In this document: piece after piece, positions 32,232 to 54,482 of the stretch
How positions within the stretch are numbered: position 1 is the stretch's first letter
Layout of the letters: each line of letters starts with the position of its first letter
From: Thermoplasmatota archaeon
Lineage (GTDB): Archaea; Thermoplasmatota; SW-10-69-26; JACQPN01; JAJPHT01
Direction: 5' to 3'
DNA length: 64,000 nt
Assembly: GCA_035540375.1 (NCBI GenBank)
Contig: DATLGO010000070.1
Location: 2,416-66,415, forward strand
Made by a program: the position numbers and the translations under genes
The notes under the pieces: model-generated
Database searches by the model: none
Seen by the model: only the letters and a program-made list of their open reading frames with translations
Told to the model about the DNA's origin: nothing

Positions 32232-32579
32232 TCAACCGAGCAGGGATTTGACGAAGAGGATGTCGGTGAAGCTCGCCTTCACCTTGACGCGCTTCTCGAG
32301 GTACGCGCGCATCGCAGGCAGCTCCTTGTTGAGGATCGCGAGGAGGTCCTTCGTCGAGACGCTCATCGACGCGTCCGGCTTCGGGTGTCGCTCGGATTCG
32401 ACGCGCACGAGGTTGCCGTCCTCGACGTGGAACGTGTACGCCGCGCCGTCCGTGACGTCGAGGAGCACGATGCGGTTCTTGCCTTTGAGCTTCTGCCTGA
32501 GCTCCGGCGAAGCGTCGTAGCGCTTGCGGAACCCGTTCACGATGCGGTCGACGGCTTCCTGGACGGTCGTGACGGTCAT
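32232..32579 (-). CDS. SCP2 sterol-carrier-like domain protein
   Basis: 115-aa SCP2 pattern. ATGA overlap with the rnhB stop. Confidence 0.65.
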   Translation of the reverse strand: MTVTTVQEAVDRIVNGFRKRYDASPELRQKLKGKNRIVLLDVTDGAAYTFHVEDGNLVRVESERHPKPDASMSVSTKDLLAILNKELPAMRAYLEKRVKVKASFTDILFVKSLLG

Positions 32580-33274
32580 GGGGATCCCTCCTCGAACTCG
32601 GCGAGGCTCGCGGCGCGCGGGGCGAGAAGCCGCCGCGTCGTCTCCCACCGCCGTCGCGCGCACGCGGGGACGTCGCCGTGCTCGCGGTGCCAATCGGCGA
32701 GGAAGCGCTGCGTCGTCGGATCCGAGGCGTAGCCGGACCCGACGTCGCGCCCGAGGGCGCGCCCGACCTCGGCCATGAGCCGGTCGCGCTCCACCTTCGC
32801 GACGATGCTCGCGGCCGAGACGACCGGATGCCGCGCGTCGGCCTTGTGCTCGGATGCGATGCGGCACGGCCGGGCCATGCGCGCGCCCACGGCGAGACCG
32901 AACCGCTTCGCGTCGACGTCGCACGCGTCCACGGCGGCCTCGTCCGCGCCGAGGGCGTCGAGCACTTCGGCGAAAAGCTCGGCCTCGAGCGCGTTCAGCG
33001 AGCCGCGCGCCATCGCGCGATCGAGCTCCGCGGGCTCCGCGACGCGCACCACGACGGCGGCGGCCGCGCCGCGGATCGCAAGGTCGAGCGTCTCCCGCCT
33101 CGCCGGCGCGAGCTTCTTCGAATCCTTCACGCCGAGGGCCGCGAGCGCGCGCTCGTCGTCGGCAAGCACGCCCGCGACGACGAGGGGGCCGAGCACGGGA
33201 CCGCGCCCGGCCTCGTCCACGCCCGCCTTCGGCGGGGCGGTGGCGGCGGTCCTCCGGGCGGCGCGCGCGGGCAC
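32576..33274 (-). CDS. rnhB: Ribonuclease HII
   Basis: GVDEAGRGPVLGPLVVAGV and DSKKL motifs. GTG start. Confidence 0.85.
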   Translation of the reverse strand: MPARAARRTAATAPPKAGVDEAGRGPVLGPLVVAGVLADDERALAALGVKDSKKLAPARRETLDLAIRGAAAAVVVRVAEPAELDRAMARGSLNALEAELFAEVLDALGADEAAVDACDVDAKRFGLAVGARMARPCRIASEHKADARHPVVSAASIVAKVERDRLMAEVGRALGRDVGSGYASDPTTQRFLADWHREHGDVPACARRRWETTRRLLAPRAASLAEFEEGSP

Positions 33275-33306: not shown

Positions 33307-33386
33307 CCGCCGGGTCTCGCCGCGCGGCGGACGCGCGGGCGGGCTTCGCGGGAAAGCTTCAAGGCGCGCGCGGCGGGTGACGGAGC

Positions 33387-33848
33387 GTGGTCGAGCCCGC
33401 CACCATCGCGACGGCGTTCATCATCCTCGGCATCCTGCTCCTCCTCATCGAGGCCGCGATGCCCGGCTTCTTCATCGCCGTCCCCGCGACCGTGCTCGTC
33501 CTGCTCGGCCTCATCGCGTTCGCGGTCCCCGAGTTCGACCTCTTCTCGTGGCAGGCCCCCGCGCTCGCCTTCGTGATCGGCCTCCCCGCGACCGTCCTCA
33601 CGATCCTCGCGTACCGCAAGATGGCGCCCGCGACCGCGCCCCCCACGACGATGAGCGGCGACCGGCTCGTGGGCCGCGAGTGCGTCGTGACGCGCGCGAT
33701 CGAGCCCACCTCGTCGAAGGGCAAGGTTCGCCTCGGGCTCGAGGAGTGGAGCGCGACCGCGGATGCGCCCATCGAGGTCGGGGCGCGCGTGCGCATCGAG
33801 CGCGTGGACGGGGTCATCCTGCGGGTCGCGGCCGTCGAACCCCTCTGA
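33387..33848 (+). CDS. NfeD-family membrane protein (short form, stomatin-operon partner)
   Basis: Three N-terminal TM helices and a C-terminal OB-fold region (GRECVVTRAI...GKVRL...WSA...VGARVRIERVDGVIL). Confidence 0.7.
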   Translation: MVEPATIATAFIILGILLLLIEAAMPGFFIAVPATVLVLLGLIAFAVPEFDLFSWQAPALAFVIGLPATVLTILAYRKMAPATAPPTTMSGDRLVGRECVVTRAIEPTSSKGKVRLGLEEWSATADAPIEVGARVRIERVDGVILRVAAVEPL

Positions 33849-33917
33849 TCGGGGGATCGTCGACGGATCGGCAAAGGGTTCTTGATCTCCCGGCACGCCT
33901 TGGTGTCGAGGCTCGCC

Positions 33918-35648
33918 ATGCGCCCCCCCGCCAGGTTCCTCCTTCTCATCGTCGCTTTCACGCTCCTCGCGTCCCCGGCCCTCGCGAAGATCCACGAGGT
34001 CCGCGTCAAGTACGAGATGGAGGAACAGGGCGGCCCGGCCCCCGGACAGAAGAACTGCGTGCGGGAGGCCGCGCTCGGGGAAGGCACGGCCGATTGTCCC
34101 GAGGTCGTCGACACGCGCTACCATCCCCAGCGCGCGATCCTCATGCTCGACAGCGTCTACACCGTGGTCCCGGGCGTGGAGGGCTACCTCGCGACCCTGC
34201 GCGACCCGGCGCCAAATTCGGGCACCCCGAGCAACGGTCAGGGCACGAGTCTCCACCGGCATACGGATGGCCTCCTCCCCGAGATCATCTATCCGGGCTT
34301 CGGACAGTTCGAGGGATGGCTCGGGCGTTGGCACGACCAGAACGCCGATGCGTTCATCCAGTACCACCGGGGCGCGACGAGCTCGCCGAGCGCGCATCCT
34401 CCGGCCAACGAGTGGATGCCGGCGCTCGGGGGAACCATGCTCGGCTTCATCGAGCCCGGCAGCCACCCCAGCTACGGGGCGCGGACCCGCCCGATGCCCA
34501 CGGAGCCGGACATCGTCTATGCGTCCACGATGGTGGGGACCTACGGGGCCTGGGCGCACGCCACGGGCGCCACGAGCGACGGGATCATCCTTTTCGTGGA
34601 CGGATCGCTCTTCAAATCAGCGCGGGTGGACACCGTCACGAATGCGATCCTCGCGCCCGACCCGGACGGCCGCTTCCCGTTCACCCTCGGTGCCACGTCG
34701 CTTCTGGACATCGACCGCTACGCCGCGGTCGCGCCGGGGCCGATCGCGGCCCTCTACGGCGTGACGGTGGGGGATCTCGTCACGGACCTGGGCAGCCCAA
34801 GCATGGGCTGGTGTCCCAACGGGTGCCGCGTCGGGCCCGTTCCGATGGGCGCGCTGCCCGTCGCGGAGCCGCTCGGTCCGGCGCACGCAGCGCTCTACGC
34901 GCCGTACCCGCGCGAGTGGCGGGACACCGAGCGCGGCGTCGGGGCGGCGTACGGTTCCGCCTATCTCGCCGCCTACGAGCCGTGGGCCGACCTCCGGCCC
35001 TATTGGTCGCCCCTCCATGTCGTGAACGAGAACGCCTCCTCCCTGCGTCCCGGACCCTTGCCGGGCCGCGGCGAACACGGGGGCCAGGCGATGGTCCCCG
35101 GCATCCTGACCTTCGAGCTTCGGACGGGCCTCTGGCATGACGCCGACGGGGACGGGGTCGTCGGATCCGCGCTCGCGGGAGACGTCTACGAGTCGGGCTC
35201 GCGCCCGGACCCCGACGATTACGTGAACAGCCAGGGCGAGTACCTCGGGCAGTTCGTCACGAAGACCCCCTCGCCGTCCTCGCCGCTCCACCGGCTCGCC
35301 GTCACCCTGCGTCCGCACGACACGTGGGGACCGGCCGGCATCTTCGTCGGCGCTCCGCCCTCGCTCACGACCATCTACAACGAGCCCACCCTCGCGTGCG
35401 CGGGCGGCAATTGCGTGCGCGAGCCCACGAACTACTGGAAATCGGGGCGGGAGGAGGTCACCCTCTACGCGTACCGGGACAGCCAGGAGCTCGGACGGTA
35501 CGTCGTCGGGGGCGTCATCTTCCCGACGGGGACCCTCGCAGGCGGGTTCGAGGCGTGCACCGATGTCGTCTACCTCCGGCACGCGTCCGGCGGCGCCGAA
35601 CGCATCGACCCCGTCTGGGACTGCGACGCCATCGAGCGGCTCGCGTGA
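33918..35648 (+). CDS. Secreted protein, novel paralogous family, copy 1
   Basis: Signal peptide. Family motifs C..EA......CP, LPxIIxPGxG, PGSHP, FVDGSL, YAPYPREW, RTGLWHDADGDGVVG, DPDDY..QGEY, CTD and WDCDAIERLA. Confidence 0.75.
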   Translation: MRPPARFLLLIVAFTLLASPALAKIHEVRVKYEMEEQGGPAPGQKNCVREAALGEGTADCPEVVDTRYHPQRAILMLDSVYTVVPGVEGYLATLRDPAPNSGTPSNGQGTSLHRHTDGLLPEIIYPGFGQFEGWLGRWHDQNADAFIQYHRGATSSPSAHPPANEWMPALGGTMLGFIEPGSHPSYGARTRPMPTEPDIVYASTMVGTYGAWAHATGATSDGIILFVDGSLFKSARVDTVTNAILAPDPDGRFPFTLGATSLLDIDRYAAVAPGPIAALYGVTVGDLVTDLGSPSMGWCPNGCRVGPVPMGALPVAEPLGPAHAALYAPYPREWRDTERGVGAAYGSAYLAAYEPWADLRPYWSPLHVVNENASSLRPGPLPGRGEHGGQAMVPGILTFELRTGLWHDADGDGVVGSALAGDVYESGSRPDPDDYVNSQGEYLGQFVTKTPSPSSPLHRLAVTLRPHDTWGPAGIFVGAPPSLTTIYNEPTLACAGGNCVREPTNYWKSGREEVTLYAYRDSQELGRYVVGGVIFPTGTLAGGFEACTDVVYLRHASGGAERIDPVWDCDAIERLA

Positions 35649-35731
35649 TCCCTCAACCACGCAGGACCCGACATAGCAGGGAAGAATACAAGGCGCCTCT
35701 CGCATCCGTACGGTCGAGGAGAGGCCCAGCC

Positions 35732-37558
35732 TTGCGTGTCAGCGTGTCTTTCATCATCGTCCTCATGGTCGGCGCCGCCGGATCGGCGGCCGCCGGCGGA
35801 TACTTCTCGAACGCGAAGCTCGAGCGCGACGAGATCAACGGTCTCGCGCTCGACGCCCAAGGGCAGCGGACCTGCATCCGCGAGGCGATGGCCGCGTCGC
35901 GGGACGCGCCGTGCGCGCGCGAGCCGGTCCCCAATTACTTCTACGCCCCGCCCCGCGAGCCCTACGAGGGCACGCTCATCCTCGACAGCTTCTACACGAC
36001 GTACCAGGGCGTCCGACCGGCCGGCGACCACGTACGCGGCCTCGACGAGACGGTCGAGGACGTCCCGGCCGCGATCGACGGCCAGCGCGCTCCCGCCACG
36101 TCGGGCCAGACGGGCGGGAACAACCTGCACCGCGACACCGACGGGGAGCTTCCGGACGTCATCCTGCCCGGCATCGGGCAGGTGCGCGCGTGGCACGGAC
36201 ATTGGGACGACAAGAACGAGAACGGCATCATCGAGAGCTGGGGCGGCGCCGGAAGCCGCGCCGCGGTCGACAACGAATGGAGCTCCAAGCCGTTCGGCAA
36301 GATCGCGGCCTACGTCGACCCGGGCTCGCACCCGGACTACCGCAACCTCGACCGTCCGGGCGATTCGAGCCCTGACTTCTGGTATTCCCGATTCGTCGGG
36401 TCCGGTTACACGTACTACCAGACCGGCCTGCAGGCCACGAACTTCATCCTCTTCACCGACGGGTCGCTCCTCAAGTCGATGATGATCCGCTCCGTCACGG
36501 ACCCCATCCTCGCGCCCAACGAAGACGGCACGGTCCCCTACACGACGACGGACAAGAGCCTCGTGGACATCGACGTGTACAACGCCCTCGCGCCCGGACC
36601 CATCGCAGGGCTGTACGTCAGCACCGTCGGCGGCCCCGTGAACCAGATCGGGAGCCCCTCCGTGGGATCCTGCCCCAACGGGTGCCGCCCCGGCGTGTTC
36701 TCGACGCGCGGCCTCGGCCTCGACCCGCTCGAGCCCTTCGTCGCGGCGCTCGCGAGCGACCTCTACGCGCCCTACCCGCGCGAATGGGCCGAGGGCGAAG
36801 GCTCCACGTCGTCCGGCCGGCACGCGGACCACATCGCCGCCTACACGCCGTGGATCGACCTCATCCCATCGTGGGGCTACCGCTCCACGAGCAACCTCGA
36901 CGTCTACTACTTCTTCCGCGGCGGGCCGCTTCCCGGCAAGACGGCCGACGGCCGGCAGGCGATGCTGCCGGGCTTCCTTTCGTTCGAGATCCGCACCGGC
37001 ATCTGGAAGGACCTCGACGGGGACGGCTTCGTCGGCTCCGGCGGATCGGATCCGTACCACGGCGGAACCCGCCCGCTCGGGGACGACTACACGGACCCGC
37101 GCGGCGAATTCTTCGGCATCTTCGCGGATTCGGGGTCGTACCAGACCGCCTCGTCGTTCCGTCTCCACCTCGTTCCGGACACCACGTGGGGGGGCGGCGT
37201 GCTCGACTACGAAAAGGTCGCGCTGACCGGCGCGGACAAGACGAAACCCAACATCGTCTGCTACGAGCAGGGCGGCCGCACGACGTGCGTCTACGAGCCC
37301 ACCTCGAGCGGATACTACCTCGGCAACGAGACGCTGACGCTCAGCGCGCGGCGCGACGTCGTGGGCTACAGCGCCGGGGACGACCGCACGCCGGGGCTCT
37401 ATCGATCCGGCGCCATGTTCCTCCCGTTCGGATCCGAAGGCATCGGCTTCACGGTGTGCACGGACGAGCTCACGCTGAAGTACGACACGCCGGAAGGCGA
37501 GGCCACGGCGACGCTCAAGGACTGCGACTGGATCGGACCCCTCGCGCCCCCCGGTTGA
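35732..37558 (+). CDS. Secreted protein, novel paralogous family, copy 2
   Basis: TTG start after a GAGGAGAGG SD-like sequence. Motifs include HGHW, PGSHP, RPGDSSPDFW, YAPYPREW, GRHADH, WKDLDGDGFVG, DPRGEFFGIFAD and DCDWIGPLA. Confidence 0.8.
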   Translation: MRVSVSFIIVLMVGAAGSAAAGGYFSNAKLERDEINGLALDAQGQRTCIREAMAASRDAPCAREPVPNYFYAPPREPYEGTLILDSFYTTYQGVRPAGDHVRGLDETVEDVPAAIDGQRAPATSGQTGGNNLHRDTDGELPDVILPGIGQVRAWHGHWDDKNENGIIESWGGAGSRAAVDNEWSSKPFGKIAAYVDPGSHPDYRNLDRPGDSSPDFWYSRFVGSGYTYYQTGLQATNFILFTDGSLLKSMMIRSVTDPILAPNEDGTVPYTTTDKSLVDIDVYNALAPGPIAGLYVSTVGGPVNQIGSPSVGSCPNGCRPGVFSTRGLGLDPLEPFVAALASDLYAPYPREWAEGEGSTSSGRHADHIAAYTPWIDLIPSWGYRSTSNLDVYYFFRGGPLPGKTADGRQAMLPGFLSFEIRTGIWKDLDGDGFVGSGGSDPYHGGTRPLGDDYTDPRGEFFGIFADSGSYQTASSFRLHLVPDTTWGGGVLDYEKVALTGADKTKPNIVCYEQGGRTTCVYEPTSSGYYLGNETLTLSARRDVVGYSAGDDRTPGLYRSGAMFLPFGSEGIGFTVCTDELTLKYDTPEGEATATLKDCDWIGPLAPPG

Positions 37559-37620
37559 CCCGACGGGACTGCGATGGATAGAAGACGACACCCCCGCACT
37601 CACCCCACGGAGAGGGTTCC

Positions 37621-39435
37621 ATGCGTGTCAGCGTGTCCTTGATCACGGTCCTCCTTCTCGCCGCCGGCGCGGCGTCCGGCGCGGGATATTTCGTCGACAC
37701 GTCCTACGAGATCGACGAGCCCGGTCGGTCGACGCGGCTCGCCGCCATGGGCCAGCGCAACTGCATCGCGGAGGCCGTCAACGCGCGCGGCGGACCCGAT
37801 TGCCCGGTCCAGCCCATCGTGACCGGCTTCAAGCCGAACCCCACGTCCGGCATCCGCGTCCTCGACAGCCACTACACGACCCAGAGCGGGCTCCCGACGC
37901 CCGGCCTTCTCGTCGGAAACCTCGGGGAGACCGTCGACGACGTGGACGACGCGGTCGCCGCGGGCCGCGGCCCGACGCAGCCCGGCACGAGCCAGGGCGG
38001 CAACAATTTGCGCCGCGACTCGGGCGGTCTCCTGCCCGACGTCATCCTCCCCGGACAGGGCCAGCTTCGCGCGTGGTATGGCCACTGGAACGACCTCAAC
38101 GGGAACGGCGTCATCGAGGCGTGGCGCGGGACCGGCGCGGCGGCGCAGTCGAACGACGAATGGTTCTCGAAGACGCTCGGGAAGCTCGCGGCCTACGTCG
38201 ACCCCGGAAGCCACCCGCACGTGCGGAACCTCGACCGGCCCGGCGACTCGAGCCCCGATTTCTGGTACGTCCCGTACGCGGGCAGCAACTACGAATGGTA
38301 CCAGACCGGCCTCAACAACGACAACTACATCCTGTTCGTCGACGGGAGCCTCATGCGAACGCTCACCGTCCGCAGCGTCACGGAGCCCATCCTGTCCCCG
38401 AACGCCGACGGGTCGGCCCCGTACACGACGTCCCCCACGAGCCTCGTGGACATCGACGAGTATCCGGCGCTCGCTCCGACCCCCGTCGCCTCGGCCTATG
38501 CCGCGACGGTCGGCAACCTCGTGTGGCCCCTCGGAAGCCCGTCGCTCGGGACGTGCCCCAACGGATGCCGACCGGGGCCGTTCTCCCTGCGCGGGACGCC
38601 GATCCAGGGGCTCGAGCCCCTCCTTGCGCCGCACGTCCGTAATCTCTACGCCCCCTACCCCCGCGAACACGCGCCCGGCGAGGGCTCCACGAGCGCGGGC
38701 CGCCACGCGGACCACCTCGCCGCGTACCGCGGCTGGATCGACCTCATCCCCACGTGGGGCTACCGCAACGTCAGCCACCAGGAGGCCTCCTACTACGCCC
38801 GCGGCGGTCCCCTCCCCGGCAAGACCGCCGACGGTCGCCAGGCGATGATGCCCGGCTTCCTCTCGTTCGAGGTCCGCACCGGCATCTGGAAGGATCTCGA
38901 CGGCGACGGCTACATCGGGACGGCCGGGCCCGACCCCTACCACAGCGGATTCCGGCCTCTTCCGGACAACTACACGGACCCCCGCGGAGAATTCTTCGGC
39001 ATCTTCGCCGACAAGGGCTCGTACGCGAGCCACGTCTCCTTCCGCATCGTCCTCGTTCCCGACACGACGTGGGGCCCCGGCGTCATCGTCGTCGACGACT
39101 TCACGGGATCCCCGGGCGGCAACGACGTGGTCTGCACCGGCCGCAGCGCGACGGTCCCGAACTGCGTGAAGGATCCGACGCGATACGGCGCGTACACGGG
39201 AACGCAGCCGATCGTGCTGAACGCGCGCCGCGACGTGACCGAAGCCGGCGTCGGGAGCGATTCCGTGCCCGGCCTCTACCGCTCGAACGCGGCGTTCTTC
39301 CCGCAAGGCTCCGAGGGTTTCGCGTTCACCGCGTGCACGGAGCTCCTGACCCTCAAGTACGTCGAGAACGACGGCCCGGTCGAGGAGACGCTGCGCGACT
39401 GCGACTGGATCGGGCCGCTCGCGTCGCGGACGTGA
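37621..39435 (+). CDS. Secreted protein, novel paralogous family, copy 3
   Basis: About 60% identical to copy 2 across its full length. GGAGAGGG 7 nt upstream. Confidence 0.8.
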   Translation: MRVSVSLITVLLLAAGAASGAGYFVDTSYEIDEPGRSTRLAAMGQRNCIAEAVNARGGPDCPVQPIVTGFKPNPTSGIRVLDSHYTTQSGLPTPGLLVGNLGETVDDVDDAVAAGRGPTQPGTSQGGNNLRRDSGGLLPDVILPGQGQLRAWYGHWNDLNGNGVIEAWRGTGAAAQSNDEWFSKTLGKLAAYVDPGSHPHVRNLDRPGDSSPDFWYVPYAGSNYEWYQTGLNNDNYILFVDGSLMRTLTVRSVTEPILSPNADGSAPYTTSPTSLVDIDEYPALAPTPVASAYAATVGNLVWPLGSPSLGTCPNGCRPGPFSLRGTPIQGLEPLLAPHVRNLYAPYPREHAPGEGSTSAGRHADHLAAYRGWIDLIPTWGYRNVSHQEASYYARGGPLPGKTADGRQAMMPGFLSFEVRTGIWKDLDGDGYIGTAGPDPYHSGFRPLPDNYTDPRGEFFGIFADKGSYASHVSFRIVLVPDTTWGPGVIVVDDFTGSPGGNDVVCTGRSATVPNCVKDPTRYGAYTGTQPIVLNARRDVTEAGVGSDSVPGLYRSNAAFFPQGSEGFAFTACTELLTLKYVENDGPVEETLRDCDWIGPLASRT

Positions 39436-39542
39436 GGCGCGCCCGGCCCGGGCGCAGACCGTCCGAGCGGGGGGCGTCGGGCGACAGCGCGCCGGCGGTT
39501 TCTTGACCTGTCCGGTGCAAGCCGGCGGGAAGAGGCCCACCC

Positions 39543-41360
39543 ATGCGTCCGACCGTCCTCGCCCTCCTGGTCGTCCTCGCTCTGGCCGGACCCGCCTTCG
39601 CGGGCGGATACTTCTCCGACGCGAGGCTCGAAGCCGACGAGGTCAACGGTCCCGCGCTCGACGCCCTCGGGCAGAAGACCTGCATCCGAGAAGCCATGGT
39701 TGGGATGGACGCGCCCGGATGCCCGCGCGAAGTCGTCCCCTACGACGAATGGGAAACCCCCGGCGAGCCCGTGATGGGCACGCTCGTGCTCGACAGCTTC
39801 TACACGACGCACGTTGGCCTGCCCCCTCCGGCCGACGCGGCGAGGAATCTCGAAACCCTCGCGTCGGACGTCCAGGCCGCGCCGACGGAGCGCCCGGCGG
39901 TCAACTGGATCCCGATCCACGGCAACAACGCGCACCGCGATTCGGGCGGAACCGCGCCGGACGTCATCCTGCCCGGGCCGGGGCAGATTCGCGCGTGGCA
40001 CGGGTGGTGGGACGACAAGGACGAGGACGGCGTCATCGCGTCGTGGGGGGAAAGCGGCGCCCACGCGCGCGTCAACGACGAATGGCATTCCGGCGGCTCC
40101 GCGCGGATCGCGGCGTACGTGAGCCCCGGGTCGCATCCGGACTGGCGCAGCCTCGAACGGCCGGGCGATTCGAGCCCGGACTTCTGGTTTTCGCGCTACG
40201 TCCTCTCGGGTTACACGTACTACCAGTCGGGTCTCCAGGCCACGAGCTTCGTGGTCTTCACCGACGGATCGCTCGTCCAGCGCATGACCGTGCGGAGCGT
40301 GACGGACCCGATCCTCGCGCCGAGCGCCGACGGGACCGCGCCCTACACGACCACCGCGCGCAGCCTCGTCGACATCGACGTCTACGCGGCCGCGGCCCCC
40401 GGGCCCGTCGAAACGCTCTACGGCTCGACCGCAGCGACCTTCGTGAACACGCTCGGGAGCCCGAGCCTCGGCACGTGCCCGAACGGGTGCCGGCCGGGCG
40501 TTTTCTCGCCCCGCGAGATCGGCCTCGAAGCGAGCGAGCCCTTCGTCGCGGGGCTCGCAAGCGAGGTCTACGCGCGCTATCCGCGCGAGTGGGCCGATGG
40601 CGAAGGCTCCTCGTCCTCGGGACGCCACGCCGAACACGTCGAACGCTACGCGCCGTGGATCGACCTCATTCCCACGTGGGGCTACCGCTCGACGAACTTC
40701 CTCGATCCGTTCTACTTCCTGCGCGGCGGTCCCCTGCCCGGCAAGACCGACGAAGGGCGCCAGGCCATGCTCCCCGGCTTCCTCTCCTTCGAGGTGCGCA
40801 CGGGCCTGTGGAAGGACCTTGACGGCGACGGCTTCGTGGGCTCGGGCGGGGCGGACCCGTACTACGGCGGAACGCGTCCGCTGCCGGACGATTACGTCGA
40901 TCCGCGCGGAGAATACTTCGGCCTCTTCGCGGACGCGCTCGACGGGGTCGAAAGCGAGGTCTTCAGGATCGTCCTCACTCCCGACACCGCGTGGAGCCCG
41001 GGCGTCCTCGCCCACGAGCGTGTCGCGGTCACGGGGACCGATCCGGAGACGGCGGTCGCGTGCGTCGATCGCGACGCGGGGAAGCTCTGCGTCAACGAGC
41101 CGACCTCGAGCGGATACTTCGTGGGGCGCGAGACCTTGTCCGTATGGGCCCGTCGGGACGTGACCGGCTTCAGCGCGGGGGACGACCGGACGCCCGGCCT
41201 CTACCGGTCGGGCAGCCTCTTCTTCCCGTTCGGAACCGACGGCTTCGGCTTCACGGCCTGCACGGAGGCGCTGACGCTCGCCTACGCGGGGCCCGAAGGG
41301 GCGACGACCGCGACGCTGCGCGACTGCGACTGGATCGGGCCGCTCGCGTCGCGGACGTGA
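39543..41360 (+). CDS. Secreted protein, novel paralogous family, copy 4
   Basis: Same motifs. GGGAAGAGG SD-like sequence. Confidence 0.8.
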   Translation: MRPTVLALLVVLALAGPAFAGGYFSDARLEADEVNGPALDALGQKTCIREAMVGMDAPGCPREVVPYDEWETPGEPVMGTLVLDSFYTTHVGLPPPADAARNLETLASDVQAAPTERPAVNWIPIHGNNAHRDSGGTAPDVILPGPGQIRAWHGWWDDKDEDGVIASWGESGAHARVNDEWHSGGSARIAAYVSPGSHPDWRSLERPGDSSPDFWFSRYVLSGYTYYQSGLQATSFVVFTDGSLVQRMTVRSVTDPILAPSADGTAPYTTTARSLVDIDVYAAAAPGPVETLYGSTAATFVNTLGSPSLGTCPNGCRPGVFSPREIGLEASEPFVAGLASEVYARYPREWADGEGSSSSGRHAEHVERYAPWIDLIPTWGYRSTNFLDPFYFLRGGPLPGKTDEGRQAMLPGFLSFEVRTGLWKDLDGDGFVGSGGADPYYGGTRPLPDDYVDPRGEYFGLFADALDGVESEVFRIVLTPDTAWSPGVLAHERVAVTGTDPETAVACVDRDAGKLCVNEPTSSGYFVGRETLSVWARRDVTGFSAGDDRTPGLYRSGSLFFPFGTDGFGFTACTEALTLAYAGPEGATTATLRDCDWIGPLASRT

Positions 41361-41382
41361 GGCGCGACACCCGGCCGTCACC

Positions 41383-43134
41383 TTGATGCCCCCTCTCGCA
41401 CCCTCGACGCAGGGAGGCCTGCCGTTGCGCGCCATCGCGACCATCGTCCTCGTGGTCCTGATCCTCGCGAGCGTCCCCGCGACCGCGCTCGACCGCGTCC
41501 TCGACGTCGCGTACGAAATCGGGGAACCCGACGCCCTCGTCCACGAAGGGAGGGGTCAACATACATGCCTCGCGGCGGCGAGCTCCCTCGCGCTCAACGA
41601 TGCGCGTTGCCCCCTCGTCCCGACGGGCGGGACGGCGCCGGCGAATGGAGTCGTCGTCCTCGACAGCGTTTACCGATCGAGTGCCGGGCTCTCGAACCAG
41701 CGGGAGACAATCTCGGATCCCGAGGGACGTCTGCGGGAGCAACAGGACGAAGGCACCACCTCGGTGAGGGCGGACCCGCTCCCGATCGAGGTGCGGGTGC
41801 CGACGGGCCTCGCCGTCGGCGGCGACACGAACACGCGACGGGACTCGGGCGGCGATCTGCCCGATCTCATCCTTCCCGGCCTCGGCAAGTTCGAAGCCTG
41901 GTACGGATGGTGGAACGATCTCGACGGTGACGGCCTCCTCGAGTATCGCGACGAGCGGCAGGGCCAAGCCGTGGTCGCGCGCCCCGACAACGAATGGTCG
42001 ATCAAGAAAGGCGCGACGATCCTCGCCTGGGTCGAGCCCGGCGCGCACCCCGGCTACGCCGCCCACGACCGCCCCGGAAGCGCGAGCCCGGACTTCTACT
42101 ACAGCGTGAGCGGCATCACGTACAACTCGGTCGGCAACGGCCAGCACATCTTCCTCGGCGGATCCCTCCTCGGCGCGCTCACGGTCCTCACGGTGAACGA
42201 CGCGACGCTCGCGCCGAGCGAGTTCGGCCCCTACACGCCGGGGCCCGAATCGCGCGTCGACCTCGACCGCTACGTGGCCGTCCTCCCCGGGCCCCTGGAT
42301 GCGCTCTACCGAGGGACGGTGGGCCCCGACGTGGACGCCATGGGAAGCCCTTCCTCGGGAAGCCTCGTGGCGAACGGCGGTCGCGTTACGAACCCGCCCG
42401 ACGCAACGGGCACCGCGCTCGACGGTCCGCTCGCATTTGCCGCCGGGGCCGCGTACGGTCGATACGAGCACGAAACGGATTCCGACGCGGGTTCGACCGC
42501 AAGCGGGCGGCACGCGGACTTCGTCGCCGGCTACCGCGGCTGGATCGACCTCTTGCCGCGCTACGGTTACGCGTCCACGGGCGCTGCCGCCAACACGCAT
42601 GTGTTCCCCGGCGAGATGCCCGGGCGCGACGCCGACGGTCGGCTCGCGGCGCCGCCGGGTTTCGTCTCGTTCGAGGTTCGCACGGGCCTCTGGCGAGACC
42701 TCGACGCGGACGGTTGGATCGGCACGGCCTCCGCCGATCCCTACGAGGGCGGCCTGCGGCCTAACCCGGACGATTACGTGGAGACCCGGGGCGAGTTCTT
42801 CCCGCTCTTCGTGACGTCCCACCCGCCGAGATCGCAGCCGGTCTTCGCCATCACGCTCACGCCCGACGGGCCATGGGATGCCGTGATCGCGAACGGGGTC
42901 CGCATCGGCGGGTCCGAAACCATCACGCTGCTTGCGCGCGGCGTCGATCGGAATCCCGGCGTGTACCGGTCCGATTCCATCTTCATGCCGAGGGGAACGA
43001 TGAACGTCGCCTTCACGGCCTGCACCGAGACGCTCGGGCTCCGTTACGAGGATCCCGCGACGGGCCCCTCGGAGGCCGTGTTGCGGGATTGCGACCTCGT
43101 GGGGAATCTCGCCGTGTCGACGATTCCCGGATAG
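41383..43134 (+). CDS. Secreted protein, novel paralogous family, copy 5
   Basis: Divergent copy. The more likely start is the TTG at 41425, after AGGGAGG. Motifs include PGAHP, GRHADF, WRDLDADGWIG, DPYEGGLRP and DCDLVGNLA. Confidence 0.7.
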   Translation: MMPPLAPSTQGGLPLRAIATIVLVVLILASVPATALDRVLDVAYEIGEPDALVHEGRGQHTCLAAASSLALNDARCPLVPTGGTAPANGVVVLDSVYRSSAGLSNQRETISDPEGRLREQQDEGTTSVRADPLPIEVRVPTGLAVGGDTNTRRDSGGDLPDLILPGLGKFEAWYGWWNDLDGDGLLEYRDERQGQAVVARPDNEWSIKKGATILAWVEPGAHPGYAAHDRPGSASPDFYYSVSGITYNSVGNGQHIFLGGSLLGALTVLTVNDATLAPSEFGPYTPGPESRVDLDRYVAVLPGPLDALYRGTVGPDVDAMGSPSSGSLVANGGRVTNPPDATGTALDGPLAFAAGAAYGRYEHETDSDAGSTASGRHADFVAGYRGWIDLLPRYGYASTGAAANTHVFPGEMPGRDADGRLAAPPGFVSFEVRTGLWRDLDADGWIGTASADPYEGGLRPNPDDYVETRGEFFPLFVTSHPPRSQPVFAITLTPDGPWDAVIANGVRIGGSETITLLARGVDRNPGVYRSDSIFMPRGTMNVAFTACTETLGLRYEDPATGPSEAVLRDCDLVGNLAVSTIPG

Positions 43135-43138
43135 CTAT

Positions 43139-44887
43139 TTGGCCCATCGGACACCCTCCGCCCCAACCATGCGCGCCGTCTTCGTCCTCGCGCTCCTGCT
43201 TCTTGCGCCCGTTGCCGCCGAGTCCACCACGTTCGACGCCCGCCTCGAGATCGAGGAGCCGGGCGCGAACGCCCACGCGGCGCGCGGCCAGCGCACATGC
43301 CTCGCCGCCCCCGACGACCCCGCCTGCCCCGCCGTCCTCACGGGCCTCGCGCACCCGGCCCTCGGAGTGCTCGTCCTCGACGCCTTCGCCTGGACCTACG
43401 CGGGCGCGACGACTTTGCGGGACTACGCCGCCGAGCCGGGGCGCCCCGGCCAGGGGGGCCTCACGACGGCGGAGACGCGACGCCTGGGCATGAACCCGGC
43501 GCGCGAATCGCTCGGGATCCTGCCCGACGCGATCCTTCCCGGCGCCGGATCGTGGCGCGCGCTCCACGGGCACTGGAGCGACGACGACGGCGACCAGCTG
43601 ATCGAGGCGCGCTTCAACGGCTTCGCGCCCGTCGTGGGCAACGAATGGGCGCCCATCGGCGGCGCGGCCCGCGTGCACGTCTGGATCGAGCCGGGCAGCC
43701 ACCCCACGGTGACGACGCTCGACCGGCCCGACGCGACGAGCCCCGACCTCGTGCTCGACTGCGATCGCTGGACGCTCCTGTGCGATCCGCGCGGGGAGGA
43801 CGATTTCATCGTGGCGACGGACGGCTCGCTCCTCGGGACCGTCGAATCGGCGGCGGTCACGCGCGCCCTCCTCGCGCCGAGCGAGGGCCGTCCCTACACG
43901 ACCCGCGCGGATTCCCTCGTGGACCTCGACACCTACGCCGCGATCGCGCCCGGCCCCGTCGAGAGCCTGTACGCCGGCGTGGCGCGGCCCCTGCTGCTCT
44001 TCGTCGGGAGCCCGAGCTACGGCTCCGCGCTCTCGGACGGCGGACGCATCGGGCCGGTCCCCTTCGGCGGGACGGCGCTTGCCGGCCCCGCCGAGCCCGT
44101 CTACGAGGGCCTGTACGCGCCCTATCCGCGGGAATGGGCGCCGGGGTCCGGATCGACCGCGGCGGGCGAGCGCGAAAGCTACACCCTCCACTACGCGCCC
44201 TGGATCGACCTCCTCCCGAGCTGGGGCTACGGCGCCGTCGGCCTCACGAGTCCCCAGGGCGGCGCGGCCGGGCCCCCCACGCCGAAGCCGGGCGCGCTCC
44301 CGGGCCGCTCCGCGACGGGCGCGCAGGCGATGCTTCCCGGCCACCTCGCCTTCGAGCTGCGCACGGGCCTCTGGAAGGACCTCGACGGCGACGGCTTCGT
44401 CGGCCGGGCCGATCCGACGGACCCGTACGAAGGCGGATCGAAGCCGCTCGCGGACGATTACGCGAACGCCGCGGGCGAGTTCGCCCCGCGCGCCGTCGAC
44501 GAGCTGCTCGTCTCGACGTTCGCGCGCGTGGTGGTGACGCTTCGACCCGACCCGGACTGGGGCGCGGGCGTGCTCGTGAACTGCAACTACGCGCCGCTTA
44601 TCGTGAACGTCGGCGGATGGGCCGAATGCGCCCGCGACCCGTGGCTGTGCGCGTCGCCGACGACGGTCTGCGCGGTCGATCCCGCGGCGTGGCTCGTGAC
44701 GGGAACGCGGGAGATCCGCCTCGCGATGCGCCTCGACGGCGAGGCCGTCGCGCGCTCCGACGCCGTGCTGCTGCCGCGCGGCACGGACGGCTTCGCGGTC
44801 GAGGCCTGCGCGGGACCCTTCACGCTCTCGTGGGCGGACGAGCGCGCGACGGTCTCGGACTGCGACCGCATCGAACCCCTCGCCTGA
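43139..44887 (+). CDS. Secreted protein, novel paralogous family, copy 6
   Basis: Divergent copy. An alternative start MRAVFVLALLLL lies at 43169. Confidence 0.7.
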   Translation: MAHRTPSAPTMRAVFVLALLLLAPVAAESTTFDARLEIEEPGANAHAARGQRTCLAAPDDPACPAVLTGLAHPALGVLVLDAFAWTYAGATTLRDYAAEPGRPGQGGLTTAETRRLGMNPARESLGILPDAILPGAGSWRALHGHWSDDDGDQLIEARFNGFAPVVGNEWAPIGGAARVHVWIEPGSHPTVTTLDRPDATSPDLVLDCDRWTLLCDPRGEDDFIVATDGSLLGTVESAAVTRALLAPSEGRPYTTRADSLVDLDTYAAIAPGPVESLYAGVARPLLLFVGSPSYGSALSDGGRIGPVPFGGTALAGPAEPVYEGLYAPYPREWAPGSGSTAAGERESYTLHYAPWIDLLPSWGYGAVGLTSPQGGAAGPPTPKPGALPGRSATGAQAMLPGHLAFELRTGLWKDLDGDGFVGRADPTDPYEGGSKPLADDYANAAGEFAPRAVDELLVSTFARVVVTLRPDPDWGAGVLVNCNYAPLIVNVGGWAECARDPWLCASPTTVCAVDPAAWLVTGTREIRLAMRLDGEAVARSDAVLLPRGTDGFAVEACAGPFTLSWADERATVSDCDRIEPLA

Positions 44888-45032
44888 GGCAACCGTTCGG
44901 GCCAAAATCCACCGGCAAGATGACCTCGCCTCGGGCGCACCGAGTTTAAGGCGCGAGGGACCGTTCGACCCGCGCGCGACAGGCCGACGATACGTTGATC
45001 GCCCTCGGGGAAATGATCGATGGGTCTTCGCG

Positions 45033-46850
45033 ATGTCCGCGCCTTCCTCCCGTCCTTCCATCGGTGCTTTGCGCGCGGTGCCGGGCGACGGGACGCTCGA
45101 TCGGAAGATCCGCCCGCGCCGGGTCCTCGCGGCGGTCCTTCTCGTCGCGCTCACGGCGCCACTCGTCGCGGGCGCCCCCGTCGGGACCGAGCCGGCGTTC
45201 GAAGCCCGGGAGAACAACCGGGTATGGATCGACGGGGAAGGCCAGTGGAACTGCGTGCCCGAAGCGCTCGAGCACGTCGCGCGGGACGGTTGCCCCGTGC
45301 AGCCGACCGGCTCGGCGAGGCCCGCGCTCGGCGTCCGCATGCTCGACGACCATTACCTCACGTCCTTCGGCGTCGGACGTCCCTTCGAGAGCGCGCAAGA
45401 CCCCGCTTCAGGCCCCGACGCCGGCGCGGGGTCGAACCTGGAACGCTCGTCCCGCGGGTTCGTCCGCGATGTCGTCCTGCCGGGGGCGGGCACGTTCCGT
45501 GCCTGGTTCGGTTGGTGGCACGACGTCGACGACGACGAGGTTCTCGAGTACCGCGGAACGGGAGACGCCTTCGCGGACGGCAACGAGTGGGTTCCGATCC
45601 GTCGGCACCATCTCGTCTCCTACGTCGAGCCGGGAAGCCACCCCGGATTCGCGACCTTCGAAAGGCCGCAGGATTCCGAGCCGGATTTCGAGTACGACCC
45701 CGGTCTGACGCCTTACTACAGCGCGCGAACGCCGAGCGCCTATTTCGCGGGGGTCATCCTCTTCACGGACGGTTCCCTCGCCCGGACCCTCCAGGTCGCC
45801 ACCGTGACCGATCCGATCCTCGCGCCAAGCGGCGAGAACCGGCCCTGGACGCCGACCGAAGACTCGCTCGTGGACATCGACCTCTACGCGGCCGTGGCCC
45901 CGGGCCCCGTCGCGGAGGTCTTCGGCGTCGTGCTCGGCGACCTTGTCGTCTCGACGGGTTCGCCGAGCCTCGGCACCCTCGCGGAGGACGGTGGGCTGGG
46001 TCCCCGGCCGGCCCGGGACACGCCGCTCGAGGGGACCTTCGCCGATCCGCCCTACGGCGCGGCCGTGGGCGCCTTCTGGGCGCCCTATCCCCAGGAGTGG
46101 CGGCCCGGCGCCCGCTCCTCGAACGCGGGCCGCGGCGATGCGTACGCTCAGGCCTACACCGACTGGATCGACCTCATCCCGGGCTACGGATACGGCACCA
46201 CGGGCTTCCAATTCAGCGCATACACCGGCCAACCCGGCCCGCTCCCTGGGCGTTCCGCGACGGGGGGTCAAGCCATGGCGCCCGGCGCCCTCGCCTTCAC
46301 GCTGCGCGTCGGGGTCTGGCGGGACCTGAACCTCGACGGTTACGTCGGCGTGGCGAAACCCGGCGATCCCCACGACGGCGGGTCGGATCCGCGCGCCGAC
46401 GACTACGCGAGCCCGCGCGGAGAATATTTCGGAATCCCCGCCCGCACGCCTTCCGGCGACGTGCTCGATTACACGCGTCTCGTGCTGCGACCCTTCCCCG
46501 ATTGGGGCGCCGCCGGCGCATTCCTGTACTACCGCGGCCAACCCGACGTGATCGTCGAACCGAGCCGCGCGCCCCCGAATCCCGTCTGCTACTCGGCCAA
46601 CGGATGCCTGAACGATCCCGGCGCGTTCCACGTGACCGGGTCGCGACCGGTCGAGCTGAACGTGCGCCGCGACGTCTACGAGGCGGGGCTCTACCGCTCC
46701 GACCTCCTGATGCTGCCGCTCGGGACGTCCGGTTTCGAGATCGAGGCCTGCACCGACACGCTGCTCGTGACCGTTCCGTCGCATGCCGGCGAGGTTGTCG
46801 CCTCCGTTTGGGACTGCGACGTCATCGAGGCGTTCGACCCCGGGCCGTGA
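45033..46850 (+). CDS. Secreted protein, novel paralogous family, copy 7
   Basis: Divergent copy. Motifs include PGSHP, ILFTDGSL, WIDLIPGYGY, DPHDGGSDP, CTDTLL and WDCDVIEAF. Confidence 0.7.
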   Translation: MSAPSSRPSIGALRAVPGDGTLDRKIRPRRVLAAVLLVALTAPLVAGAPVGTEPAFEARENNRVWIDGEGQWNCVPEALEHVARDGCPVQPTGSARPALGVRMLDDHYLTSFGVGRPFESAQDPASGPDAGAGSNLERSSRGFVRDVVLPGAGTFRAWFGWWHDVDDDEVLEYRGTGDAFADGNEWVPIRRHHLVSYVEPGSHPGFATFERPQDSEPDFEYDPGLTPYYSARTPSAYFAGVILFTDGSLARTLQVATVTDPILAPSGENRPWTPTEDSLVDIDLYAAVAPGPVAEVFGVVLGDLVVSTGSPSLGTLAEDGGLGPRPARDTPLEGTFADPPYGAAVGAFWAPYPQEWRPGARSSNAGRGDAYAQAYTDWIDLIPGYGYGTTGFQFSAYTGQPGPLPGRSATGGQAMAPGALAFTLRVGVWRDLNLDGYVGVAKPGDPHDGGSDPRADDYASPRGEYFGIPARTPSGDVLDYTRLVLRPFPDWGAAGAFLYYRGQPDVIVEPSRAPPNPVCYSANGCLNDPGAFHVTGSRPVELNVRRDVYEAGLYRSDLLMLPLGTSGFEIEACTDTLLVTVPSHAGEVVASVWDCDVIEAFDPGP

Positions 46851-46906
46851 AGCGGGACCGCCGTCGCGCTTAAGCCTCGCGGACCCTTTCGAGGCGCGGG
46901 AATCCC

Positions 46907-48007
46907 GTGGCCGACATCCTCACCGTCCTGGCCGTCCTCATCCTCGCCGCGATCATGATCCTCGCCCTCTCGGGCGTCCGGATCGTGCAGCCCTACGAGC
47001 AGGGTCTGCTCATCGTCCTCGGCCAGTTCCGCCGGAAGCTCAATCCCGGTTTCAACTGGGTGTACCCGCTCATCTCGCAGGTGGTGAAGCTCGACCTCCG
47101 CACGCAGGTGCTCGACGTGCCGCGGCAGGAGGTCATCACGAAGGACAACTCCCCGACGAACGTGGATGCGATCGTGTACATCCGCGTCATCTCGCCCGAC
47201 AAGGCGTTCTTCGAGGTCACGAACTACAAGCTCGCGACGATCGCGCTCGCGCAGACGACCCTCCGCAGCGTGATCGGCGACATGGAGCTGGACGAGATCC
47301 TGTACAACCGCGAGCGCATCAACTCGCGCCTGCGCGACATCCTCGACCACGCGACCGACGCGTGGGGCGTGCGCATCGAGGCGGTCGAGATCCGCGAGGT
47401 CGACCCCGTCGGGCCCGTCAAGGCCGCGATGGAGGAGCAGACCTCCGCCGAGCGGCAGCGTCGCGCGGCGATCCTGCGCGCGGACGGCGAGAAGCGCAGC
47501 GCGATTTTGACCGCGGAAGGCCAGAAGCGGGCCCGCATCCTCGCGGCCGAAGGCGTGCGGCAGGCGAAGATCCTCGAAGCCGAGGGTCAGCGACTCGCGC
47601 GCATCCTCGAGACGCAGGGCGAGGCGCAGTCGCTGCGCATCCTCGCGATGGGCGCCGCGCCCCTCGACCAGAAGTCGCTCACCGTGCTCTCCCTCGACGC
47701 GGTGAAGGCGCTCGGCAACGGGCAGGCGACGAAGATCGTGCTCCCGTTCGAGATCTCCACGCTCATGCAGGGCGTCGGCAAGTTCCTCGGAGCCGGCACG
47801 CAGGTTCCCCCGATGGAACCTTCGAAGCAGAAGGAGCTCGAGCAGCTCATCGGCCCGGCCGAGCGCGTGCTCGGCACCATTCCCGACCCCACGGAGCTCT
47901 CGAAGGAGCTCGCCGCGATCGAGAAGGAGATGGCGGACGAGGCCGCGAAGACCGAGGAGATCGCGCAACGCGCCAAGCCCACGAGCCCGCCCGCGGCCGC
48001 CGAATGA
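46907..48007 (+). CDS. SPFH/band-7 (stomatin/prohibitin-like) membrane protein
   Basis: N-terminal TM helix, SPFH domain (IVQPYEQGLLIVLGQF...), and a coiled-coil EA-rich C-terminus. GTG start. Confidence 0.8.
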   Translation: MADILTVLAVLILAAIMILALSGVRIVQPYEQGLLIVLGQFRRKLNPGFNWVYPLISQVVKLDLRTQVLDVPRQEVITKDNSPTNVDAIVYIRVISPDKAFFEVTNYKLATIALAQTTLRSVIGDMELDEILYNRERINSRLRDILDHATDAWGVRIEAVEIREVDPVGPVKAAMEEQTSAERQRRAAILRADGEKRSAILTAEGQKRARILAAEGVRQAKILEAEGQRLARILETQGEAQSLRILAMGAAPLDQKSLTVLSLDAVKALGNGQATKIVLPFEISTLMQGVGKFLGAGTQVPPMEPSKQKELEQLIGPAERVLGTIPDPTELSKELAAIEKEMADEAAKTEEIAQRAKPTSPPAAAE

Positions 48008-48099
48008 CACGCTCCGGGCGCGCGTGCAGGCGCGGGTCGTTCCACGCCGCGGTCGGCTAGAGAAGGCTTATCTACGACGTGTCCTCCTAAGCCGACGAC

Positions 48100-49116
48100 A
48101 TGGCCCAGGACCTCCTCGAGAGCGGGCTCCTTCTCATGGTCTTCGTGGGCCTCGGCCTCCTCGCCGCGGGCTTCTTCGTGAAGGATCCGCGCAAGCACCT
48201 GCTGCGCATCGCCGGGTGGGCCCTCTTCGCGATCTACTGGCCCTTCCAGGCGCCGCACTTCTTCAACGACGCGGACCCCGTGAACGGGTATTTCGCGCTC
48301 GCGGCGCCGCTCTTCCTCGGCTACATCGCGTGGCACGAATGGAAGTCCTACCAATGGAAGGAGGACCCGCACGCGATGCGTTGGCTCACGGGCACGAGCG
48401 TCGTCGCCGCGGCGAGCTACTTCGTCATCTACCGCATCCCCGAGGCGACGGAGGCGCTCATCCGCTTCACGGCCGGTCAAACGTCGTGGATGCTCGCGTT
48501 CCTCTTCGGCGTCGAGTCGAGCATCCAGCCCTCCATCTTCGAGGCGGGCTCGTGGGACGTCTTCCTCACGGGCGGCGGAACCGAAGAGTACGCGGTCACG
48601 ATCATCCTCGCGTGCACCGCGATCCAGAGCATCATGATCTTCGTCGGCGCGATCGCGAGCCTCGAGCGCTCGCCACGCCGCAACCGCCTCCTCGCGTACG
48701 CGATCACGGTCCCCGTGATCTACTTCCTGAACCTCTTCCGCAACTCGGGCATCGTCTTCGCCTACAAGGTGTGGGACTTCCCCGCCTGGTTCAAGGGCGG
48801 ATGGGACGCGATCGGTCAACCGATCTCGTGCCTCATGGGCACGTGCTTCCCCATCGGCGAGCTCGGCACGCAGGCGCGCTTCGAGTTCATGCACTCCGTG
48901 CTCGGGAAGGGCGGAAGCCTCGTCGCGCTCATCGTCATCGCCCTCGGCGTGTTCATGCTCCTGCCGGAGCTGCACAACAACATCCTCGACCTCTTCGATC
49001 TGAGGAAGCGCAACCGCAAGGGCTTCTACGATCCGCCGCCGCCGCCGGGCCCCGCCGACCCGCCCGCAAGCGCGCCGCCGGCCCCGCCCGCCGCCGCGAA
49101 ACCCGAGGAGGCCTGA
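48100..49116 (+). CDS. artA: Archaeosortase A-like transpeptidase (exosortase/archaeosortase family)
   Basis: Polytopic membrane protein. Cys172 in a TM segment (ILACTAIQ) and Arg214 (LFRNSG) fall at the positions of the H. volcanii ArtA catalytic Cys173/Arg214. Pro-rich C-terminal tail. Synteny with psd/pssA. Confidence 0.65.
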   Translation: MAQDLLESGLLLMVFVGLGLLAAGFFVKDPRKHLLRIAGWALFAIYWPFQAPHFFNDADPVNGYFALAAPLFLGYIAWHEWKSYQWKEDPHAMRWLTGTSVVAAASYFVIYRIPEATEALIRFTAGQTSWMLAFLFGVESSIQPSIFEAGSWDVFLTGGGTEEYAVTIILACTAIQSIMIFVGAIASLERSPRRNRLLAYAITVPVIYFLNLFRNSGIVFAYKVWDFPAWFKGGWDAIGQPISCLMGTCFPIGELGTQARFEFMHSVLGKGGSLVALIVIALGVFMLLPELHNNILDLFDLRKRNRKGFYDPPPPPGPADPPASAPPAPPAAAKPEEA

Positions 49117-49117
49117 C

Positions 49118-53731: not shown

Positions 53732-53803
53732 TGCCGGGGACGGGGTTCGAACCCGCGACCTAAGGATTATGAGTCCTTCGCTCTACCAGCTGAGCCACCC
53801 CGG
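53732..53803 (-). tRNA. tRNA-Met (anticodon CAT; elongator type with a G1-C72 pair), no encoded CCA
   Basis: Read as GCCGGGG-TG-GCTCAGCTGGTAGAGC-G-AAGGA-CTCATAA-TCCTT-AGGTC-GCGGGTTCGAACCCCGT-CCCCGGC-A. Cloverleaf with a 7-bp acceptor stem, 5-bp anticodon stem and a TTCGAAC T-loop. Confidence 0.85.
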
Positions 53804-53858
53804 CGGGGGGTACGCCGTGAAAGCGGCTCGCCGTATTTAACCGTAAGGGGGCCGAAAA

Positions 53859-54398: not shown

Positions 54399-54450
54399 TT
54401 GTTGTACGCCGAAGCCCCCCCGGGCGACGAGGCCAGCGGAATCCAGAACC

Positions 54451-54457: not shown

Positions 54458-54482
54458 CCGAGGCCCGCCATCGGCCGCCCGT

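Follow-up and report, generated by a model that had tools for sequence, protein, structure and literature searches.

Gene content of the NfeD-SPFH locus

The genes of NfeD and of its stomatin-type SPFH partner are among the most conserved gene pairs in prokaryotes. The present analysis concerns a stretch of 64,000 nucleotides (nt) from a Thermoplasmatota archaeon (assembly GCA_035540375.1, contig DATLGO010000070.1, positions 2,416 to 66,415), hereafter referred to as the window, in which this pair is split by an array of paralogous genes. A short, intact NfeD gene (33387-33848; PF01957, E=5.3e-14) and an intact SPFH/stomatin-type gene (46907-48007; PF01145, E=2.4e-38) are both located on the + strand and are 13,058 nt apart, and the interval between them (33849-46906) is occupied by seven same-strand paralogs, which cover 12,546 nt (96%) of it. 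The window has a guanine-cytosine (GC) content of ~70%, and its proteins match a Candidatus Thermoplasmatota archaeon metagenome-assembled genome (MAG) with the locus tags VM889_*. In the following, the paralogs of the window are referred to as p1-p8, and the fetched stretches of relatives, of further loci of the same MAG, or of contigs from other assemblies are labeled L001-L179.

The array is densely packed. Paralog p1 (33882-35648, 588 amino acids [aa]) begins 33 nt past the stop codon of NfeD and is followed by p2 (35732-37558, 608 aa), which starts with a TTG codon behind a GGAGAGG box, p3 (37621-39435, 604 aa), which was taken for the structure model described below, and p4 (39543-41360, 605 aa). 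Paralog p5 (41383-43134, 583 aa) lacks a variable, cysteine-containing insert near the C-terminus (alignment columns 560-600), and its match to the family hidden Markov model (HMM) is split; p6 (43139-44887) is 582 aa as the longest open reading frame (ORF) and 572 aa in other gene calls, which start later; and p7 (45033-46850, 605 aa) ends 56 nt upstream of SPFH. All seven are on the + strand, and the spacers between successive copies are 83, 62, 107, 22, 4, and 145 nt. The minus-strand ORFs inside the interval have lower GC at the first than at the second codon position, a pattern typical of shadow frames, and an Rfam scan detected no RNA inside the interval, tRNA being the only RNA found. 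The left flank is marked by a divergent RNase HII gene (rnhB, 32576-33274, - strand; PF01351, E=3.2e-44).

Both members of the pair are unremarkable as proteins. NfeD comprises 153 aa, with the PF01957 OB-fold partner-binding domain at residues 92-147 (52.6 bits versus a cut-off of 29.1), and its N-terminal ~80 residues are hydrophobic and give a weak match to PF24961 NfeD_membrane (E=0.0022), which lies below the cut-off of that model. Short NfeD proteins have been described as having ~140-150 aa and a membrane-embedded hydrophobic N-terminal half (PMC2636767). Its identity to the NfeD genes of the two closest relatives, L005 and L006, both of which have no array, amounts to 44-53%. The SPFH protein comprises 366 aa and consists of an N-terminal membrane segment (hydrophobic N-terminus ILTVLAVLILAAIMILAL), a Band 7 domain (PF01145, residues 26-196, 132 bits), and a coiled-coil tail; it is 75% identical to its relative in L005, 71% identical to that in L006, and 61-75% identical to SPFH genes located beside NfeD elsewhere in archaea. 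Accordingly, both genes have the domains expected of NfeD1a and SPFH1a, and the pair departs from that class in adjacency alone. In gene order, strand, and domain make-up, the window resembles ybbJ-ybbK (qmcA) of Escherichia coli and the short NfeD/stomatin pairs of Pyrococcus horikoshii; by contrast, the usual spacer of an NfeD1a-SPFH1a operon is ~50 nt, whereas in the window 13,058 nt with seven unrelated genes lie between the two.

An NfeD gene belongs to the operon of most SPFH1 genes, in keeping with a co-evolution of the two families; for some SPFH1 genes, no NfeD neighbor is detectable, and some operons hold additional genes (Hinderhofer et al., 2009; PMC2636767). The same operon is the norm in bacteria (PMC2636767). 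In the literature looked at, no report of a paralog array placed between the two genes was found.

The arrangement in other archaea was surveyed in two samples. For the first, the SPFH protein was scanned against one genome per GTDB species, and the best 80 loci (61-75% identity) were kept, spanning Thermoplasmata, Methanomassiliicoccales, Methanoperedens, ANME-2/Methanosarcinales, Methanocella, and others. In each of the 80, NfeD immediately precedes SPFH on the same strand, and the estimated distance from NfeD stop to SPFH start is -11 to 780 nt (median, 47 nt). The second sample comprised 80 metagenomic SPFH loci among the matches listed, with a best identity of 74% and with the population of the window itself absent. 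Here NfeD is upstream in 72 (median gap ~52 nt); of the other eight loci, seven extend less than 250 nt upstream of SPFH, leaving 72 of 73 informative loci, and the single informative exception, L168, has 800 nt upstream of SPFH with no NfeD match. When the samples are pooled, the two genes are adjacent at 152 of 153 informative loci, and the 13-kb separation in the window is a clear outlier. Furthermore, the paralog family was found at none of the 160 related SPFH loci, either by tblastn or by hmmsearch of an HMM built from the eight window copies against six-frame ORFs.

The two closest of these relatives keep the flanks of the window. L006 reads rnhB(-)-NfeD-SPFH-ArtA-Psd-PssA with no array, SPFH starting 15 nt after the NfeD stop, and L005 reads NfeD-SPFH-ArtA-Psd-PssA, likewise array-free; the divergent rnhB-NfeD layout of the window recurs in L006, L007, L027, and L033. 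The original prediction, made from the sequence of the window, had described NfeD and SPFH as same-strand genes ~13 kb apart with seven paralogs between them and had stated that a short NfeD gene normally lies next to SPFH. Its coordinates were borne out, and the synteny comparison that it proposed showed that NfeD and SPFH are adjacent in the relatives and that the family is absent at those loci. Its description of the array was right regarding the seven copies in the gap and was amended in two respects: the start of p2 was moved to the TTG codon, and the family is not limited to the gap, since an eighth paralog, p8 (51865-53625, + strand, 586 aa, family HMM 761 bits), is located outside it.

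Origin of the array

The family is abundant in the genome to which the window belongs. Among 1.84 billion representatives, an exhaustive HMMER search picked up only 146 that belong to the family (71 at E<1e-30), and VM889 locus tags were carried by 12 of the 20 representatives looked up. Copies were counted as distinct tags plus arrays seen, which gives lower bounds, and by this count the MAG holds at least 36 copies at at least 18 loci. These include a second seven-copy tandem array in L087 (5598-17972), between pyridine-nucleotide oxidoreductase and PNPOx genes, a three-copy array adjoining tryptophan dioxygenase in L004, a divergent pair in L085, a 2+1 group of three copies in L089, a pair following directly on the rpl1-rpl10 ribosomal genes in L175, and single copies in L174 and L176. 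Beyond this MAG and its sample set, to which strong matches are almost confined, only weak and rare relatives were found. Distant members are located beside giant secreted proteins in another assembly (L091). Neither NfeD nor SPFH was found within the fetched sequence of the eight other family loci (L087, L004, L085, L089, L174, L175, L176, and L091). The L091/L093 cluster (GCA_041599855.1, contig JBFILE010000048.1) contains distant members of 548 and 596 aa (family HMM E=9e-41 and 5e-17), together with 442-, 744-, and 2530-aa proteins that have no firm domain matches and are encoded on the same strand.

Within arrays, neighboring copies are usually mutual best matches (p2-p4, 65%; p2-p3, 57%; p6-p7, 43%), and the same is seen in L087, L004, and L089, which argues for tandem duplication in situ. 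A neighbor-joining tree of 66 family members is star-like and resolves only local sister pairs; best-match analysis was therefore used instead. The GC content inside the array is 0.70-0.72, the same as in the flanks, and GC at third codon positions (GC3) also equals that of neighboring genes.

On this evidence, the array is quite probably a lineage-specific insertion, followed by tandem amplification, inside an ancestral NfeD-SPFH bicistron, and its placement there is most likely incidental. Because NfeD and SPFH are linked in the relatives while the family is located at unrelated loci, an insertion is favored over a functional module. In the proposed course of events, the ancestor would have had a tight NfeD-SPFH bicistron followed by the genes of archaeosortase A (ArtA), PssD, and PssA. 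A member of the orphan secreted family of ~580-610 aa would then have landed in the short NfeD-SPFH spacer and would have been amplified to seven copies by tandem duplication through unequal recombination. Most of the duplications would be old (35-43% identity), and a later burst would have given rise to p2, p3, and p4 (54-65%). NfeD and SPFH would have stayed intact throughout, as in a tolerated insertion into an intergenic spacer that entails no functional coupling.

Several observations weigh against this account or leave parts of it loose. Paralogs p1 and p7 match outside copies (P0021, L085_g2) equally well, and several insertions, or exchange between loci, may have taken place instead of one insertion. 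The closest SPFH among the retrieved genomes is 75% identical, which fixes neither the age of the insertion nor whether it is shared with sister species. Moreover, the array adjoins an envelope-biogenesis cluster (ArtA, PssD, PssA, and the AglB gene), with p8 on the far side of that cluster, and this flanking position could reflect more than chance.

A TT[ACT]A[AT] pentamer occurs at -29 to -40 of 9 of the 27 gene starts in the window, against a background of ~1 per kb per strand, and the spacing of this TATA-like box suggests mostly leaderless or short-leader mRNAs in this high-GC archaeon. Degenerate variants of the box (cTTcAAg, TTTAT, TTAAA, and TTCAT) are found throughout the window. Upstream of NfeD, a box TTCAA within GCTTCAAGG (33358-33362, + strand) lies 29 nt from the start codon and is the putative NfeD promoter. 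The 33-nt spacer between NfeD and p1 contains no promoter-like box, and p1 is thus probably co-transcribed with NfeD, whose promoter probably now drives both genes. A second box, TTAAG within GCTTAAGCC (46870-46874, + strand), lies 37 nt upstream of the SPFH start and is a near-match to the -30 box of this genome; it is a candidate independent promoter, and SPFH is probably transcribed from it. Among the other genes, ArtA has GCTTATCTA at -32, p7 has a TTTAAG box ~88 nt upstream, and p2, p3, p4, and p8 have GGAGAGG-like Shine-Dalgarno boxes and an A/T-containing element at -42 to -46. A single T5 run is present on the + strand between 32 and 54.5 kb, and since oligo-T terminators are lacking, read-through across the whole array is possible. 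A scan for bacterial promoters and terminators, a method unsuited to archaea, gave nothing above shuffled expectation. The spacer of 15 nt in L006 is too short for a separate SPFH promoter, and an ancestral bicistronic NfeD-SPFH message is therefore probable; in that case, SPFH would have acquired its present box secondarily.

Alternatively, the seven secreted proteins might be clients or partners of an NfeD/SPFH scaffold, which would, for example, stabilize unfolded exported proteins or control their quality in a membrane microdomain, the genes from NfeD through ArtA-PssD-PssA constituting one envelope-biogenesis operon. The layout is compatible with such a module: the genes are all on one strand with short spacers, no oligo-T terminator is present between 33 and 49 kb, p1, p5, and p6 have no promoter-like box, and the locus runs on into ArtA, PssD, PssA, and, further downstream, AglB, that is, into a surface-biogenesis neighborhood. 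Nevertheless, we regard this explanation as unlikely, because NfeD and SPFH were absent from the sequence fetched around the eight other family loci, none of the 160 loci elsewhere has the family, at least 29 further copies in the same MAG have no NfeD-SPFH neighbor (eight loci examined), and SPFH has the TATA-like box of its own. It is correspondingly doubtful that NfeD, the seven paralogs, SPFH, ArtA, and the archaetidylserine enzymes are one transcription unit in which the family would be exported, folded, or turned over at an SPFH/NfeD microdomain dedicated to it, although, if true, this would provide a concrete set of client proteins for prokaryotic stomatin and NfeD. Bacterial SPFH and NfeD proteins reportedly stabilize unfolded membrane or exported proteins, which would fit such a module.

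Entry of the 13 kb as one block, either as a horizontally acquired island or as cargo of a mobile element, is considerably less probable still. A large, lineage-restricted block of genes at a precise intergenic site would fit such an event, and in L005 (Thermoplasmata archaeon BP_742) the corresponding NfeD-SPFH spacer of ~168 nt (~3625-3790) contains a near-perfect inverted repeat with arms of ~34 nt (GGGCTCTGGGCTCAGGACTCTGGACTCAGGGCTC ... GAGCCCTGAGTCCAGAGTCCTGAGCCCAGAGCCC), which could be a hairpin element or an insert resembling a miniature inverted-repeat transposable element and hints that the site can accept insertions. However, the GC and GC3 values equal those of the flanks, the family is part of the native gene content of this genome, where it is abundant, and the array borders have no integrase, transposase, or tRNA and no direct or inverted junction repeats; a repeat search at the borders for target-site duplications or element ends returned nothing but stretches of paralog coding sequence homologous to one another. 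The array is therefore more likely to have arisen by duplication of native genes than as a mobile island.

An array that is itself ancestral, with the tight adjacency elsewhere arising by repeated loss, is very improbable. The deep divergence of the paralogs (33-43% identity) does indicate that the array is not recent, but under this explanation the array would have to be lost precisely at each of 152 loci in Thermoplasmata, Methanomassiliicoccales, Methanoperedens, Methanosarcinales, Methanocella, and others; in bacteria, too, NfeD and SPFH normally form an operon (PMC2636767), and strong family matches hardly extend beyond this MAG and its sample set. Finally, tandem paralogs are able to mislead assemblers into joining unrelated contigs, yet the chance of an assembly or binning artefact is negligible, because copies with DNA identity of at most ~80% over 300 nt are too diverged to collapse or chimerize, and because four independent assemblies repeat the left or the right junction: L001 (JGI 3300028006) reproduces rnhB-NfeD-p1..p6 at 99.99% identity, and three ENA assemblies (L177, L178, and L179) reproduce p2..p7-SPFH-ArtA at 99.76-100%. 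The separation is not an assembly artefact.

Insertion followed by tandem amplification thus corresponds to the first of two possibilities that the original prediction had left side by side, namely that the array expanded inside a pre-existing NfeD-stomatin operon, and it is strongly supported by the 152 of 153 adjacent loci, the array-free L005 and L006, and the best matches between array neighbors. The second, a functional link of the secreted proteins to NfeD and SPFH, found no support, given the eight family loci examined that have no NfeD or SPFH and the NfeD-SPFH genomes that have no family member. The prediction had also named a contrary pattern, in which relatives would have NfeD and SPFH unlinked and the family elsewhere; the family is indeed found at unrelated loci, whereas NfeD and SPFH are linked. 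A pair that is split by 13 kb with both genes intact shows that neither tight adjacency nor translational coupling is a strict requirement, and it constitutes a natural experiment on the co-regulation of NfeD and SPFH after separation. An ordinary cause, i.e., an array-seeding family landing in a spacer, implies no new SPFH biology by itself, and the expanded orphan family of apparently exported ~600-aa proteins is perhaps the more useful lead for research on the archaeal cell surface.

The paralog family

The eight window paralogs comprise 582-608 aa, are acidic (isoelectric points of 4.5-5.2), and have 0-2 N-glycosylation sequons. Paralogs p1-p7 are mutually 33-65% identical over their full length, and p8 is 33-36% identical to them, with E-values down to 1e-92 (tblastn). 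As judged by eye, all eight begin with a basic N-terminus and a hydrophobic core of 12-18 residues, followed by A-x-A-like sites (ALA|K, AFA|G, ATA|L, VAA|E, and GTA|S), which would make up a Sec-type signal peptide. Cysteines are conserved as a pair in the N-terminal part, in a CPNGC motif shared by five copies, and as a pair toward the C-terminus, to which an invariant D-C-D belongs. The paralogs further contain two W-x-D-x-[DN]-G-[DN]-G motifs, which resemble DxDxDG calcium-binding loops, and two hypervariable, indel-rich segments (~residues 93-126 and 494-522 of p3), which have low confidence in the structure model.

The family was compared with described families by sequence and by predicted structure. 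Searches of the eight copies against Pfam-A and NCBIfam gave nothing at E<=0.01 and a single noise match at E<=5; among 49 distant members, the Pfam/NCBIfam scan found only one 3577-aa protein with additional Calx-beta and related domains; and a sequence profile search of the PDB gave nothing below E=0.03. An AlphaFold2 model of p3, based on 20 family sequences, consists mostly of beta-strands (predicted local distance difference test 72.5, predicted template modeling [TM] score 0.70). Foldseek comparison of this model with the PDB gave a best E of 8e-3 at a TM score of ~0.1, and comparison with BFVD gave a best E of 5e-4 at a TM score of 0.13; neither is a meaningful match, a weak negative in view of the moderate confidence of the model. 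By these five comparisons (Pfam, NCBIfam, PDB sequences, and Foldseek against the PDB and BFVD), the paralog family belongs to no described family.

Two functional assignments were considered and rejected. Conserved GSHP, DGSL, and GSPS motifs made enzymes of the paralogs conceivable, but the wider family does not retain the His and Ser residues of these motifs, whereas it does keep Asp, Glu, and Trp at several positions; this favors a structural or binding role over an enzymatic one. The adjacent ArtA gene likewise prompted consideration of the paralogs as archaeosortase substrates. None of the eight has a PGF-CTERM signal, and all end a few residues past the conserved D-C-D (e.g., ...DCDWIGPLASRT) with no hydrophobic tail. 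Since the signal is absent, the paralogs are not considered ArtA substrates.

Judged from these sequence features, the paralogs are most likely exported, disulfide- and Ca2+-stabilized binding proteins of the surface or the extracellular space with variable loops. Lineage-specific expansion of secreted or surface protein families in tandem arrays is a general phenomenon. The window family is similar to such expanded arrays in its putative signal peptide, its conserved scaffold with variable loops, its cysteine pairs, its dozens of copies, and its local tandem duplication, and it differs from the described expanded families in that no sequence or fold relationship was detected. A family with no recognizable fold and at least 36 copies in one genome may represent a new class of archaeal surface protein.

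The envelope cluster and other features of the window

Directly after SPFH, the window encodes ArtA (48100-49116, + strand; TIGR04125, E=5.9e-49, 166.9 bits versus a curated cut-off of 75), a PssD-like phosphatidyl(archaetidyl)serine decarboxylase (49118-49747, + strand; PF02666, E=1.5e-39), and a CDP-alcohol phosphatidyltransferase, i.e., a PssA-like archaetidylserine synthase (49744-50637, + strand; PF01066, E=8e-10). The ArtA-PssD-PssA trio follows SPFH contiguously in the window (46907-50637, SPFH included), in L005 (3802-7531), and in L006 (8916-12747), and in this sub-lineage, L005 and L006 included, NfeD-SPFH is fused to the ArtA lipid-anchoring cluster. An artA-pssA-pssD cluster has been described for Methanosarcina and studied in Haloferax volcanii (PMC7157517). 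The trio of the window agrees with the synteny in Methanosarcina (PMC7157517). It differs from that cluster in two respects: in the window, L005, and L006, the trio is additionally joined downstream of NfeD-SPFH, and the array proteins next to it have no PGF-CTERM and are hence not substrates of the system. In two further relatives, the association is looser or partial, artA-psd-pssA being located ~6 kb downstream of SPFH in L032 and psd being located right after SPFH in L024.

A few small genes separate the PssA-like gene from p8, which is located ~3.9 kb downstream of SPFH, beyond ArtA-PssD-PssA, and adjoins genes for tRNA-Met (53732-53804, - strand) and AglB/STT3 (54399-57191, + strand). 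Its closest relatives are copies at other loci (P0012 and L004_g1), not p1-p7. The AglB gene lies ~4 kb beyond the ArtA cluster.

Upstream of the left flank, two tandem paralogous genes on the + strand (30340-30900 and ~31083-31652) encode small lipoproteins of ~186-190 aa and precede the glyoxalase and RNase HII genes. Both proteins have lipobox-like LAGC/FAGC motifs, several conserved cysteines, and no Pfam match. Further upstream, the region at ~19800-22530 is a low-GC island (0.58 versus ~0.70) with no high-GC3 ORFs, which may have been horizontally acquired. Two of the ORFs in it (19852-20496 and 20545-21234) are paralogous and Cys-rich, the second of them with a signal peptide, and a further ORF (21231-22529) of 432 aa is lipoprotein-like.

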